Positions 1-8,381 of a stretch of DNA of 32,313 bases are shown one piece after another. Below the pieces are notes generated by a model. That model was not told where the DNA came from and did no database searches. It worked only from the letters and a program-made list of their open reading frames with translations. The number at the start of each line of letters is the position of its first letter. Positions within the stretch are counted from its first letter, which is position 1. The stretch lies in sequence record SRR20825006_984. The stretch is one strand, 5' to 3'. A program made the translations under genes and the position numbers.

Positions 1-31
1 CATCAACACAAAAAAAAGTTTTTCTTGCCAC
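1..31 (-). CDS. Proline racemase family / 4-hydroxyproline 2-epimerase, N-terminal fragment (runs off the left edge)
   Basis: The minus strand from 31 reads GTG GCA AGA AAA ACT TTT TTT TGT GTT GAT = MARKTFFCVD, matching the start of Flavobacterial proline-racemase-family proteins (..FFCVDAHT.GNP). It lies 35 bp downstream of the KGSA dehydrogenase in the same orientation. Not in the ORF track; only 10 codons are visible. Confidence 0.7.
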   Translation of the reverse strand, partial: MARKTFFCVD

Positions 32-66
32 TAGCGCTCTTTAAAAAACCATCTTATTTTTATTTT

Positions 67-1590
67 CTATCCCTTGAGGTGTTCTGGCAACAACGACTGC
101 GGAAAGGATTGATAGCTAACCGGTCTGACCCATCTATTAATGGCATGCACACCAACTGCGGTAAACCTAGAATCCGTAGATGCCGGGTAGGGTCCTCCGT
201 GCTGCATGGACGGACACACTTCCACACCTGTGGGAACACCGTTATAAATGATCCTGCCCACTCTATTCTGCAAAGCATCCACTACCTCTATCAAATTGAT
301 GGTATCATTCTCTTCCGCGATAAGGGTGCCTGTCAACTGCCCTTCCAATCCTTCGATTATTTGAAGGAGTTCGGCATCATCCTTACATTGTACCACTAAC
401 GAAAATGGGCCAAAAACTTCTTGGTGCAATTTTGGATTGGCCAAAAATTCACTGCCTGAAACCGTTGCTACCGCTGAAGCTGCATAGTTTGGCTCCAAAT
501 CAGCATCTACTTTACCCACCACTTCAACCCCAGATTGGGATGTTACATCAGCTTCTTTTTTCTCGTAGCCGCTCTTAATGTTCGGGTGCAACATGCATTG
601 CGAATCTAACGCAATCGTTTCTTTCGCCAACTCGGCTATGAAATCTTCTGTATTATCATTCTTTATGGTCAACAACAGACCTGGATTGGTACAAAATTGT
701 CCAGTTCCCAACGTGATAGATCCTGCGTAAGTCTTTGCAATCTCTCCTCCTCTTTGGGATATGGCGTCCGGAGTTATGATTACCGGATTGATACTTCCCA
801 TTTCTGCAAATACAGGGATTGGCTCTTCTCTTTTTGCAGCGATATCGAACAATGCCCTTCCACCTGTAATACTACCTGTGAAGCCCACTGCTTTGACCTT
901 GGGATGGTTTACCAAATCCACTCCTGCCTGAACTCCTCCGTTGATACTGGAAAACACTCCTTTGGGCATGCCTGTTTTCTCTACTGCTTTAACAATGGCA
1001 GAAGCCACCAATTCGGATGTACCTGCGTGCATTGGATGGGATTTAACGATAACTGGACAACCGGCTGCCAGTGCACTTGCCGTATCACCTCCGGCCGTTG
1101 AATAGGCCAATGGGAAGTTACTTGCTCCAAATACAGCCACGGGCCCCAAGGGAATCATTGTTTTTCTCAAGTCCTCCTTGGGCAAAGGTTTTCTATCCGG
1201 CTCGGCCGCATCAAATGTATTCCCTCTCCAATCCTCAGTTTCCACCAGTTTTGCAAAGGTGCGCAATTGGTTCATGGTCCTCCCACGCTCACCAACCGCC
1301 CTACCTTTGGGAAGTCCTGATTCCATGGTATAGGTATCAATCAACTCTTGGTCCAATGCCAAAATCTCATCGGCAATGGCGTTGAGAAAATCTGCCCTTT
1401 GCTTACCGGGCACATTTCTATATACTTTAAAGGATTCCCATGCAGCATCTACGGCCTTTTCAATCTCTTCCTTTGTTACTTCTACAAATGTTGTGGGGTT
1501 TTCCTTGTTCAGTTTAGGGTTGATGGTCTTGAACTCAACCTCTCCATTTGCACTAAATTCTCCTGCGATACAGTTTTTACCTGTAATCAT
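67..1590 (-). CDS. NADP-dependent aldehyde dehydrogenase, alpha-ketoglutaric semialdehyde dehydrogenase (KGSADH) type
   Basis: ALDH motifs: GPVAVFGASNFPLAYSTAGGDTASALAAGCPV, FTGS..GG, EMGSINP, catalytic GQFCTNPG, EVFGP, HGGPYPAST. Start overlaps the stop of the upstream DapA-family gene (1587-1590). Confidence 0.9.
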   Translation of the reverse strand: MITGKNCIAGEFSANGEVEFKTINPKLNKENPTTFVEVTKEEIEKAVDAAWESFKVYRNVPGKQRADFLNAIADEILALDQELIDTYTMESGLPKGRAVGERGRTMNQLRTFAKLVETEDWRGNTFDAAEPDRKPLPKEDLRKTMIPLGPVAVFGASNFPLAYSTAGGDTASALAAGCPVIVKSHPMHAGTSELVASAIVKAVEKTGMPKGVFSSINGGVQAGVDLVNHPKVKAVGFTGSITGGRALFDIAAKREEPIPVFAEMGSINPVIITPDAISQRGGEIAKTYAGSITLGTGQFCTNPGLLLTIKNDNTEDFIAELAKETIALDSQCMLHPNIKSGYEKKEADVTSQSGVEVVGKVDADLEPNYAASAVATVSGSEFLANPKLHQEVFGPFSLVVQCKDDAELLQIIEGLEGQLTGTLIAEENDTINLIEVVDALQNRVGRIIYNGVPTGVEVCPSMQHGGPYPASTDSRFTAVGVHAINRWVRPVSYQSFPQSLLPEHLKG

Positions 1591-2510
1591 ACTACACTTT
1601 TTAGGTTTTTATATTCTGGGAGCTTTGGTCTGTTTTTCATAGCTTCCTCAATAACCTTGAGCACCCGCTCCCTTTCTTTTCCTTGCAAGGGCAATCTTGG
1701 GGCCCTAACATTTTCTGTTCCAATTCCTGTAGCTACTTCGGCCAATTTTATGTTCTGTACCAACTGCGGGCTTATATCCAGTTCCAGCAACGGCATAAAC
1801 CATTTATATATGGACAGGGCCTCGTTTATTTTACCTGCCTTGACGAGTTCGTAAATGGCCACGGTTTCCGCTGGGTAGGCGCAAACCAAACCTGCCACCC
1901 ATCCATCTGCTCCTATTACCAGACTTTCAAGTCCCAAAGTATCAACACCTGTGAATATCTTGAACCTATCGCCAAAACGATTTTTTAAACGTATTACATT
2001 GGTGATGTCCCGTGTTGATTCCTTTACGGCTTGGATGTTATCACATTCTGACAACTCTTCCATCATATCCAAAGTTACTTCAATTTTATAATCTACCGGA
2101 TTATTGTAAATCATTATGGGTAAAGATGTACTGTTTGCGATGGCTTTAAAGTACACAACGGTTTCGTGATCAGTTGCCTTGTAACGCATTGGAGGCAAAA
2201 GCATTAGCCCTTGCGCCCCTACCTTTTCTGCATGCTGTGCAACTTCTATGGCTTCTTTTGTGCTTTGCTCGGCTATGTTGATAATTACAGGAACTTTGCC
2301 CTGAACTATCTTTAACGAGGCTTTTATCAAGGTCTCCTTTTCCTCTTTGGTGAGAGTACTGGCCTCACCCAAGGTTCCTCCGAGTATTATTCCGTGTACA
2401 CCGGCATCCAGTTGTGCGTTAATATTTTTCTCAAACATGGCAAGGTCCAATTCGTCCTCGCTTGTGAATTTTGTGGTTACAGCGGGCATAACCCCTTCCC
2501 AATGTATCAT
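1587..2510 (-). CDS. DapA-family protein, probable delta1-pyrroline-4-hydroxy-2-carboxylate deaminase (HypD/LhpC-like)
   Basis: GGTLGE motif, IYNNP (catalytic Tyr), AVKES (Schiff-base Lys). Context with Hyp epimerase and KGSADH. Start moved to ATG 2510 (MIHWEGVMPAV), downstream of a -7 promoter element. Confidence 0.8.
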   Translation of the reverse strand: MIHWEGVMPAVTTKFTSEDELDLAMFEKNINAQLDAGVHGIILGGTLGEASTLTKEEKETLIKASLKIVQGKVPVIINIAEQSTKEAIEVAQHAEKVGAQGLMLLPPMRYKATDHETVVYFKAIANSTSLPIMIYNNPVDYKIEVTLDMMEELSECDNIQAVKESTRDITNVIRLKNRFGDRFKIFTGVDTLGLESLVIGADGWVAGLVCAYPAETVAIYELVKAGKINEALSIYKWFMPLLELDISPQLVQNIKLAEVATGIGTENVRAPRLPLQGKERERVLKVIEEAMKNRPKLPEYKNLKSVV

Positions 2511-8200: not shown

Positions 8201-8217
8201 AAGTTAGCCAATTTCAT
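5206..8217 (-). CDS. susC: SusC/RagA-family TonB-dependent transporter
   Basis: Signal peptide, N-terminal carboxypeptidase-regulatory-like domain, [10 protein letters not shown], plug ([43 protein letters not shown]), NPNLRWEK, C-terminal [15 protein letters not shown]. Confidence 0.96.
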   Translation of the reverse strand: [1003 protein letters not shown]

Positions 8218-8365
8218 AATACATGTTAATTAGTTGAGTTAATTTTTCCTGTAAAAACCATTGCTCAGCATCGTTAATATTGATTTAAAGATTAATAAGC
8301 GTTAATTTTACACTTGTAAATGTAAACTTATGGCTCAGAAGATTTCTGGAAATATTATCCGGTTT

Positions 8366-8381
8366 TGATATTATGTTGACC
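8366..8381. promoter_or_regulatory. Putative AraC operator TGATATTATGTTGACC upstream of susC
   Basis: Matches the 2581-2596 motif at 13/16 positions. It starts 49 bp from a -7-like element (TACATTTA on the minus strand, 8317-8324), versus 50 bp at the Hyp operon. Confidence 0.5.

Follow-up and report, generated by a model that had tools for sequence, protein, structure and literature searches.

Bacteria degrade trans-4-hydroxy-L-proline (Hyp) with an epimerase, a D-Hyp dehydrogenase, a pyrroline-4-hydroxy-2-carboxylate (Pyr4H2C) deaminase and a 2-oxoglutarate-semialdehyde (KGSA) dehydrogenase under an AraC-type regulator such as LhpR of Pseudomonas. Polysaccharide utilisation loci (PULs) usually answer to hybrid two-component systems (HTCS), extracytoplasmic function (ECF) sigma/anti-sigma pairs or SusR, and RagAB of Porphyromonas gingivalis is a SusCD-type importer of peptides. 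The genes hypBA1, hypBA2 and hypAA of Bifidobacterium longum and their homologues in Xanthomonas euvesicatoria degrade the beta-L-arabino-oligosaccharides on Hyp-rich glycoproteins, and an excerpt of PMC6085000 places a prolyl oligopeptidase gene adjacent to the Xanthomonas cluster. PL27 enzymes take the rhamnose cap off gum-arabic arabinogalactan protein by beta-elimination at glucuronate (excerpt of PMC8377490). PULs are nearly always interpreted as systems for glycans, and Hyp catabolism is treated as a pathway for an amino acid. Here we describe a locus of a marine Flagellimonas in which one operator appears to join the two. It was found in a stretch of 32,313 nucleotides (SRR20825006_984, the window), which corresponds to G000:C2:43692-76004 in a genome of 4,407,068 bp.

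The locus spans about 34 kb (roughly 17.9-52.1 kb of contig C2), and positions 1-8381 of the window form its end nearest the regulator. An earlier note had read these positions as a locus free of carbohydrate-active enzymes (CAZymes), in which a SusCD pair apparently co-regulated with Hyp catabolism may import Hyp-rich peptides of collagen or gelatin, or else of algal and diatom glycoproteins. The co-regulation has good support; collagen peptides as substrate do not. We favour, with somewhat better than even confidence, a Hyp-responsive utilisation locus for a Hyp-rich glycoprotein or glycopeptide. Glycoproteins like extensins or arabinogalactan proteins, of algal, seagrass or plant origin, are the most likely substrate.

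The operator and the genes of the locus

The upstream regions of susC and the araC-divergent intergenic regions were aligned across the loci found with SusD (phylogenetic footprinting). This revealed a bipartite conserved motif, GGnnAATATAGTAT-N8-GnTAATAnT, with two TAATAT-like half-sites 21 bp apart. A repeat search of the two upstream regions, each taken alone, returned just short chance repeats. A simple rule located the motif in 36 of 38 susC upstream regions, 142-171 nt before the ATG (missed in L017 and L044), and in 29 of 33 araC-divergent regions (missed in L028, L039, L041 and L042). A position weight matrix (PWM) recovered sites in L017, L028 and L042 outside the stretches initially taken. 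The PWM was trained on 56 distinct sites of other genomes, with the own genome excluded, and the 4,407,068 bp were scanned on both strands. Four sites scored more than 14 bits. Just three of them exceeded 30 bits, one before susC, one before the Hyp operon and one before the DPP-IV operon, and the next best reached 15.1 bits. The shared upstream motif announced in the earlier note is thus a real 32-bp operator with three sites in 4.4 Mb (Table 1). No site of the DPP-IV type was among those used for training. Of 19 related loci with a D-Hyp dehydrogenase gene, 16 have such a site behind that gene. When the DPP-IV operon is divergent from susC, as in L019 and L041, the motif lies between the two in both orientations.

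In the Flagellimonas genome every operator is followed, 25-26 nt downstream, by a TAnnTTT(G/A) box. These boxes resemble the -7 consensus of the Bacteroidota, TAnnTTTG, and the geometry fits an activator that would be bound next to the -33 region. The imperfect palindrome directly after the susC box is conserved upstream of susC across genera and absent from the other two operator promoters. It may be the site of a second regulator or a hairpin in the susC leader of about 90 nt.

The genes of the window were taken from a six-frame list of open reading frames (ORFs) and from Pfam and NCBIfam scans. The Hyp-epimerase-like start recognised earlier at the left edge belongs to a 4-hydroxyproline epimerase gene. 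Its product of 335 residues matches PF05544 (E 1.8e-127) and the equivalog NF010578 with 589.7 bits (cut-off 376), and it is the sole HypE match within its own genome. ORFs and domain scans also agree with the earlier description of an aldehyde dehydrogenase gene and a dihydrodipicolinate synthase (DHDPS)-family gene divergent from an araC gene, together with susD-susC. For the aldehyde dehydrogenase, the top NCBIfam name was 2,5-dioxovalerate dehydrogenase at 130 bits against a cut-off of 750. Its assignment as a candidate 2-oxoglutarate-semialdehyde dehydrogenase rests on the gene context, an aldehyde dehydrogenase gene keeping this place in 39 of 40 sampled Hyp operons. A second aldehyde dehydrogenase gene of the genome (G000:C21:52282-53519; L002, L003) is 66-68% identical in DNA to that of the locus. 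The DHDPS-like protein scored 185.5 bits with TIGR00674, under the dapA cut-off of 206.15, and the true dapA lies on another contig (C60, 294.7 bits). The DHDPS-like gene probably starts at the ATG at 2510 (MIHWEGV...) and not at that at 2567, because the latter falls inside the operator, ahead of the conserved -7 box.

AraC carries HTH_18 (4.6e-20) and HTH_AraC (5.6e-15) domains and an N-terminal cupin (Cupin_2/AraC_binding, residues 29-76). The start of susD is likely at 5195 (M32), since the orthologues align only from about residue 28-32. From M32 the N-terminus reads ...LLLPIAC-TDLEEE, a lipobox and then an acidic stretch. SusC scored 757.2 bits with TIGR04056 (cut-off 368.25) and 63.7 bits with the signature TIGR04057 (cut-off 46.2), and the domain scan detected no STN domain on it. 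The two genes form an adjacent pair with 11 bp between the susC stop and the susD start.

The 32 kb left of the window were taken and their ORFs scanned for domains. On the minus strand, hypE is followed by a gene for a DAO-family FAD dehydrogenase, a gap of 167 bp, and the genes for DPP-IV (S9), a GH146-like enzyme, DUF885, DUF5695 and GH43. The FAD dehydrogenase matched the DAO family at 1.1e-60; its best NCBIfam match, D-amino acid dehydrogenase, reached 257.8 bits against a cut-off of 383, and its gene keeps its place in 38 of 40 sampled Hyp operons. The GH146-like gene encodes 1045 residues with Laminin_G_3, Big_4 and a GH127/GH146 catalytic domain, and GH43 carries F5/8-type C and LamG domains. 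Past GH43, an NrtR/AraR-type regulator gene lies on the plus strand, and divergent from it are GH51, GH127, araB, araD, araA, a mutarotase gene and a sodium:solute symporter gene. This second GH127 matched 6ex6 at 1e-201 and HypBA1 (3wkw) at 2e-97.

The glycan-active genes on the susCD strand begin 4.7 kb past the left edge of the window. Within the window itself, susCD indeed has no glycoside hydrolase next to it. The description as CAZyme-free is an artefact of the position at which the window was cut, since the GH146-like, DUF5695, GH43, GH51 and GH127 genes continue beyond its edge. The locus has the marks of a PUL, namely an adjacent susC-susD pair, a locus-borne regulator (AraC-family, with operators at three promoters), and co-localised and co-regulated carbohydrate-active enzymes, here the off-window GH146-like, DUF5695 (PL27-like) and GH43.

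Table 1. Features of the locus and its neighbours (window positions unless a contig is named)
Feature	Position	Strand	Remarks
hypE, first 10 codons	1..31	-	continues past the left edge; full gene G000:C2:42718-43722
Aldehyde dehydrogenase, candidate 2-oxoglutarate-semialdehyde (2,5-dioxovalerate) dehydrogenase	67..1590	-	PF00171; closest solved structure 3v4c, 4e-132
DHDPS/DapA-family gene, candidate pyrroline-4-hydroxy-2-carboxylate deaminase	1587..2510 (ORF to 2567)	-	PF00701
-7-like box of the Hyp operon, TATTTTTG	2531..2538	-	26 nt downstream of operator; conserved in orthologous intergenic regions
Operator copy 1, GGTTAATATAGTATCAGTATTCGTTAATAATG	2565..2596	-	two TAATA(T/A) half-sites; araC/Hyp-operon intergenic region; PWM 39.3
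araC	2646..3488	+	AraC-family; divergent from Hyp operon, convergent with susD
susD, surface lipoprotein	3597..5195 (ORF to 5288)	-	SusD_RagB and SusD-like_3 domains
susC, TonB-dependent transporter	5206..8217	-	CarboxypepD_reg domain, plug, barrel
Imperfect palindrome AAGTGTAAAATTAACGCTT (AAGTGT-N7-ACGCTT)	8297..8315	-	directly after the susC -7-like box
-7-like box of the susC promoter, TACATTTAC	8316..8324	-	25 nt downstream of operator
Operator copy 2, GGTCAACATAATATCAAAACCGGATAATATTT	8350..8381	-	about 160 nt upstream of the susC ATG; PWM 37.6
Operator copy 3	C2:41337-41368		gap before DPP-IV; PWM 31.8
DEDD exonuclease/GIY-YIG fusion	8587-9975	+	upstream of susC; unrelated
Short aldose-epimerase-like gene	9988-10764		neighbour outside the locus
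M20 peptidase	10764-12062		neighbour outside the locus
LolC/E-like permease	12128-13369		neighbour outside the locus
NamZ exo-muramidase	13373-14596		neighbour outside the locus
Fatty-acid hydroxylase	14987-15829		neighbour outside the locus

The neighbours at 8587-16354 look unrelated to the locus. Contigs from RNA libraries also cover parts of it. Those of one study (X17 and X18, from a relative about 96-97% identical) came as separate pieces spanning 1-2546/2553, 2722/2742-3495/3533 and 3599-7179, so that the breaks coincide with the intergenic regions on both sides of araC. In a marine metatranscriptome (X19), two identical contigs covered 508-770 in the dehydrogenase gene and 1644-1986 in the DHDPS-like gene. 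Such contigs cannot show transcript starts or levels and may stem from DNA carry-over; they were not used as support.

Regulator phylogeny and synteny of the locus

HypE orthologues (E <= 1e-80) were found in 109 of 200 sampled genera. The 19 kb around 40 of them, chosen for large contigs and with HypE 86-64% identical to that of the locus, were examined and the other 69 left out. An AraC homologue of 42-64% identity was beside the stand-alone Hyp operon in 37 of the 40 loci, and the operon contained a DAO-family dehydrogenase in 38 and a DHDPS-like gene in 36. DUF885 was present in 22 loci, nearly always between the aldehyde dehydrogenase gene and hypE, and a DPP-IV-like gene inside the operon in eight, between hypE and the FAD dehydrogenase gene. 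A co-oriented operator with a PWM score above 20 bits was found between araC and the Hyp operon in 15/40. Three of the 40 operons have a sodium:solute symporter beside them.

The closest AraC paralogue in the own genome is 31% identical (C21, about 142.5-143.2 kb). The AraC tree comprised 74 sequences. All 36 that come from SusCD- or GH146-linked loci grouped in one clade (SH-aLRT 100) amid the AraCs of Hyp operons. This was a quick maximum-likelihood tree with midpoint rooting; the long-branched own-genome paralogue, when used as outgroup, attracts L096, and three rows marked 'no Hyp' belong to contigs whose length does not allow a judgement. According to this tree, the AraC is the local representative of a clade found beside Hyp operons in most Flavobacteriaceae. 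AraC and operator would then be the ancestral control of Hyp catabolism, and the operator would later have been placed also before susCD and before the DPP-IV/GH146-like/DUF5695 operon. On this assumption Hyp or a close derivative is most likely the inducer. Taken together, the operator shared by the three promoters and the Hyp-type clade of the regulator bear out that SusCD is linked to Hyp catabolism, and their co-regulation is well supported.

An independent link of a Hyp operon with GH146-like and GH43 genes is seen in G030 (L058, G030:C6:103000-122000). Here the Hyp operon has a strong operator (38.0 bits) and is directly followed by GH146-like (63%) and GH43 (65%) genes, and a GH127 gene is beside araC. 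No SusD orthologue was found in this genome at E <= 1e-100.

The synteny of the SusCD clade was analysed with a SusD scan over one genome per species, and the proteins of the own locus were placed by tblastn. The scan gave 41 loci with 64-98% identity from Flagellimonas/Allomuricauda/Muricauda, Maribacter, Galbibacter, Neotamlana, Robertkochia, Sinomicrobium, Sediminicola, Pricia, Salegentibacter and one Bacteroidales metagenome-assembled genome (MAG). HypE was linked in 24 of them, in 19 within the flank and in five (L009, L010, L012, L023 and L037) 0-6 kb beyond it, where the coordinates fit the same contig. In 11 loci (four Maribacter, five Galbibacter, Robertkochia and the Bacteroidales MAG) the full 10-kb flank contained no Hyp genes, and six were too short for judging the linkage. 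Past AraC or the Hyp operon, wherever the flank reaches, the loci continue with DPP-IV, GH146-like, sometimes DUF885, and DUF5695. Most of the loci that lack Hyp genes (L025, L030-L033, L038 and L043) have DPP-IV as the first gene of the core operon; it was undetected in L027 and L028.

In the sample of one genome from each of the 200 other genera, SusD was searched at E <= 1e-100 with six candidates scored per genome. An orthologue was found in four genera, and in these DUF5695 was linked in 4/4, HypE in 2/4 and araA in 0/4; two of them (G043 and G128) are probably not independent of the 41-locus set. The order in G114 is araC, DHDPS-like, aldehyde dehydrogenase, hypE, DAO, susC, susD, DPP-IV, GH146-like, DUF885 and DUF5695, which is the same set in a reshuffled order. 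The G197 locus is reduced to susC, susD, araC and DUF5695 with weak operator-like sites (15-18 bits). Its susD match (G197:C4:322858-324534; L053 6862-8535) has three in-frame stops (TGA, TAG and TAA) and may be a pseudogene.

The genes directly after susD in the relatives are mixed glycosidases and peptidases: GH97 and M61 glycyl aminopeptidase (L011 and L012), M61 alone (L036), GH127 with F5/8C (L017), DUF6055 (L040), or a second SusCD with three DUF885 genes (L009 by Pfam; the same tblastn pattern in L010, L023 and L037). In G128, an M24 aminopeptidase P gene follows DUF5695. The relatives thus add M61, M24 and extra DUF885 copies to the peptidases of the locus. In L009, L010, L023 and L037, all Flagellimonas/Allomuricauda, the second SusC/SusD and the three tandem DUF885 genes are inserted at about 12.3-21.6 kb, with the orthologous susD on one side and the remainder of the locus on the other; a weaker operator-like site (24.7-25.5 bits) lies among the DUF885 copies and HypE is still found 15-17 kb downstream. 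In L012 (Allomuricauda), a transposase of the IS1595 family and two small ORFs lie at 15705-17950 on the minus strand between the M61 gene and araC.

Predicted enzymes and the likely substrate

The GH146-like protein matched PF07944 at 3.4e-73 and, among solved structures, came closest to those of GH146, with 5opj at 1.3e-61 and the beta-1,3-L-arabinofuranosidase 8k7x/8k7y at about 1e-40. It keeps E774, C776, C844 and C845, aligned with the conserved ETC and CC motifs. These residues match the Cys3-Glu zinc site that an excerpt of PMC10850190 describes for the cysteine beta-L-arabinofuranosidases of GH127/GH146, and they identify the catalytic domain as one of GH127/GH146 type. A beta-L-arabinofuranosidase is therefore predicted from the sequence.

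The DUF5695 protein of the locus has 900-913 residues, and 1,848 relatives were counted among 1.84 billion representative proteins. An AlphaFold2 model from a 27-sequence alignment (pLDDT 91.4, pTM 0.91) shows beta-sandwiches at the N-terminal end, then an (alpha/alpha)6 core, and a beta-sandwich at the C-terminal end. With Foldseek, the top match was the PL27 lyase BACCELL_00875 (5nok/5no8) at E 1.8e-32, followed by matches at 1e-7. VIA-align superposed the model on 5no8 with Z 36.5 and an rmsd of 2.9 over 642/669 residues at 16% identity, and the next best structure had Z 19.1. The family profile also had 5no8 as its lone PDB match (E 1.5e-16). On the basis of the model, which shows the N-terminal beta-sandwich and the (alpha/alpha)6 barrel of the PL27 fold, DUF5695 is a remote PL27 homologue. 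Natural fusions of DUF5695 exist with a GH51-type alpha-L-arabinofuranosidase (P0011, 1713 residues, 58% identical to the own protein), with AbfB (P0113) and with LamG (P0015, P0016 and P0028). These fusions point to arabinosides as the likely context.

All 22 aligned DUF885 members share H385-E386-x3-G390-H391 and E415 without variation. The Pfam family is placed in the Peptidase_MA clan according to an excerpt of PMC12572635, and the model of the protein (pLDDT 79.4) matches uncharacterised DUF885 crystal structures. DUF885 is a putative metallopeptidase, weakly ACE/M32-like in its modelled fold; an assignment of its activity from that likeness was rejected as too weak. With the type found in Hyp operons, the DUF885 of the locus shares just 17-21% identity, and it therefore belongs to a different subfamily. 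The DUF885 genes of Hyp operons have lipoprotein-type signals at the N-terminus of their products, and an invariant HEAVPGH motif was seen in these lipoproteins (L055 = G043:C14, L056 = G197:C1, L057-L096).

The genes present, the places of the operator, the synteny, the tree of the regulator and the structural matches were observed; from them we infer the substrate, the SusCD cargo, the inducer and every enzyme activity as follows. With Hyp or a close derivative as inducer, the AraC-family activator would bind the 32-bp tandem-repeat operator just upstream of the promoter -33 region and switch on three units. These would be susC-susD, the Hyp-to-2-oxoglutarate operon (DHDPS-like deaminase, aldehyde dehydrogenase, Hyp 2-epimerase and FAD D-Hyp dehydrogenase) and the operon of DPP-IV, GH146-like, DUF885, DUF5695 and GH43. 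SusD would bind O-glycosylated Hyp-peptide fragments and SusC would import them. The periplasmic glycan-active enzymes (GH146-like, DUF5695 and GH43) would remove arabinofuranosyl and other caps, the proline-specific peptidases (DPP-IV and DUF885) would cleave the Pro/Hyp-rich backbone, and Hyp would be oxidised to 2-oxoglutarate. The freed arabinose would enter the adjacent AraR-controlled GH51-GH127-araBDA cluster. Import, cap removal, cutting of the Pro/Hyp backbone, Hyp oxidation and arabinose catabolism would all be required, which argues for a Hyp-O-glycosylated protein as substrate.

The common operator of the Hyp operon and susCD would also fit a locus where a RagAB-like SusCD imports unglycosylated Hyp-rich peptides of collagen or gelatin and the glycoside hydrolases are unrelated neighbours. 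DPP-IV and the M61 glycyl aminopeptidase and M24 aminopeptidase P of the relatives would suit the Gly-Pro-Hyp repeats of collagen just as well, and DUF885 and DPP-IV-like genes also occur within CAZyme-less stand-alone Hyp operons. However, the GH146-like and DUF5695 genes are in an operon behind the third operator copy, and they stay beside the SusCD clade in every genus reached. The conserved partners of SusCD are DPP-IV, GH146-like and DUF5695 even in loci without Hyp genes, and DUF5695 is related to PL27 and in places fused to arabinofuranosidase domains. The nearest solved relatives of SusD are glycan binders (3jys at 3e-30 and SusD 3ck7 at 1e-26), and all 26 PDB matches at E <= 1e-3 are glycan-type SusDs, RagB of P. 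gingivalis not being among them in this sequence-level comparison. These relatives argue mildly against a pure peptide importer and are silent on glycopeptides. We regard the import of collagen peptides by a RagAB-like pair, in a locus that also has glycan-active enzymes, as very unlikely. Hyp-rich glycoproteins of algae or plants, close to the second option of the earlier note, fit better than collagen or gelatin.

A plain glycan PUL has a little more in its favour and is still unlikely. SusCD would then import a beta-L-arabinofuranose oligosaccharide, as from side chains of arabinan or arabinogalactan, with no peptide attached, and the Hyp operon would have landed adjacent to it in some lineages. 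This would account for the 11 of 41 loci, including Maribacter and most Galbibacter, that have SusCD, AraC, GH146-like and DUF5695 in a flank without Hyp genes, for the unlinked Hyp operons that lack the operator, and for the GH51, GH127 and araBDA genes that adjoin in this genome. The last point loses its weight since the adjacency of araBDA is conserved in none of the four other genera, and we dropped it as evidence for the core substrate. Moreover, the regulator comes from the AraC clade of Hyp operons, some stand-alone Hyp operons carry the operator too, and DPP-IV heads the core operon in most of the Hyp-less loci, although a periplasmic proline-specific peptidase would be pointless in a pure glycan PUL. 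Three separate promoters instead of a single operon, and accessory genes that vary from locus to locus (GH97, M61, DUF6055, second SusCD and extra DUF885), would also fit a mixed regulon. In this case a Hyp sensor would trigger a general response to decaying plant or algal walls, and SusCD, glycosidases and peptidases would act on separate molecules. Against this, SusCD, DPP-IV, GH146-like and DUF5695 are kept together despite reshuffling (G114, L019 and L041), which is typical of proteins working on one substrate, and we consider such a regulon quite unlikely.

Several observations weigh against the Hyp-rich glycoprotein as substrate. SusD was found in 4/200 other genera versus 109/200 for HypE, so that most Hyp catabolism in the family proceeds without this importer. 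The unlinked Hyp operons of G043 and G197 have no operator above 15, and that of G197 has its own AraC with 46% identity; the coupling is therefore confined to some lineages. The araBDA cluster adjoins the locus only in this genus. All glycan-active enzymes of the locus appear to be periplasmic or lipoproteins of unproven location, which leaves an extracellular first cut unexplained. The GH146-like enzyme may have another specificity than predicted; GH127 relatives in marine flavobacteria include 3,6-anhydro-D-galactosidases. PL27 chemistry requires a uronate, and uronate-processing genes were not noticed in the locus, where none were searched for. GH121 and typical type-II arabinogalactan backbone enzymes were likewise not noticed, with no systematic search made. 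The own DUF885 has HELLPGH in place of the canonical HExxH with a downstream Glu, and its next fold neighbours after the DUF885 structures, ACE and M32, were found at E 4e-3 or worse with a TM of about 0.33.

The Hyp-rich glycoprotein reading can be extended to the origin of the locus and to its two families of uncharacterised proteins, which we propose tentatively and with some doubt. An ancestral module of AraC, Hyp operon, DUF885 and sometimes DPP-IV might have captured SusCD and the glycosidase operon through spread of the operator. DUF5695 might be a new PL27-related family acting on Hyp-linked glycans, and DUF885 a new group of peptidases, periplasmic and anchored as lipoproteins, that set free Hyp or peptides containing it.

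Comparison with known systems

PULs, Hyp catabolism, GH146 and PL27 are each already known. The Creative Commons part of PubMed Central and bioRxiv were searched. They contained no paper linking Hyp catabolism to SusCD or PULs in the Bacteroidota and no description of SusCD and glycosidase/peptidase operons wired to a Hyp-catabolism regulator, of the recurrent DUF885 and DPP-IV genes inside flavobacterial Hyp operons, or of the DUF5695-PL27 homology; the one paper on DUF5695 was irrelevant. If the extended reading is true, a sensor of an amino acid (Hyp) would act as master switch of a SusCD-based glycoprotein locus, and marine Flavobacteriaceae would have a dedicated route for both the glycan and the signature amino acid of Hyp-rich algal and plant wall glycoproteins. 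If one operator indeed unites the importer, the glycan-stripping enzymes, the proline-specific peptidases and complete Hyp oxidation, the locus would represent a defined regulon for which an inducer is predicted. It would then provide a testable model for the recycling of Hyp-rich wall glycoproteins, a seldom-considered pool of carbon and nitrogen, by marine Bacteroidota. It would also give functional contexts to two large families of unknown function, DUF5695 (PL27-like) and DUF885 (in 22/40 Hyp operons).

As in the bacterial trans-4-Hyp pathway, members of all four enzyme families are encoded together in a single operon that diverges from a gene of the AraC family, and this arrangement is conserved in 36-39 of 40 sampled Flavobacteriaceae genera. 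The locus differs in that the Flagellimonas operator is also found before SusCD and before the glycosidase/peptidase operon, and the flavobacterial operons often embed DUF885 and DPP-IV-like genes for lipoproteins or periplasmic proteins. RagAB resembles it as a pair of the SusC/SusD family that plausibly imports a peptide-bearing cargo, with peptidases in the locus. In contrast to RagAB, glycan-active enzymes belong to the Flagellimonas regulon, and no specific sequence relation was detected in the PDB search of SusD.

To our knowledge, the PL27-containing arabinogalactan-protein PULs of Bacteroides carry no Hyp catabolism. They are likewise based on SusCD and use a PL27-fold decapping enzyme for the glycan of a Hyp-rich glycoprotein (BT0263 and BACCELL_00875; excerpt of PMC8377490). 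DUF5695 is remote from these enzymes (16% identity, profile E 1.5e-16) and has an extra C-terminal beta-sandwich. Galactan backbone enzymes were not noticed in the Flagellimonas locus.

The systems of Bifidobacterium and Xanthomonas also aim a cysteine beta-L-arabinofuranosidase of the GH127/GH146 type and a GH43 enzyme at Hyp-linked arabinosides (excerpts of PMC6085000 and 10.1101/2020.03.26.009860). These excerpts mention neither Hyp catabolic genes nor a shared Hyp-type regulator. Both systems use an ABC transporter or none, whereas the Flagellimonas locus has SusCD; it also adds DUF5695 and DUF885, and GH121 was not noticed there. By analogy, the Bifidobacterium and Xanthomonas systems can be regarded as precedents for the glycan part of the Flagellimonas locus.

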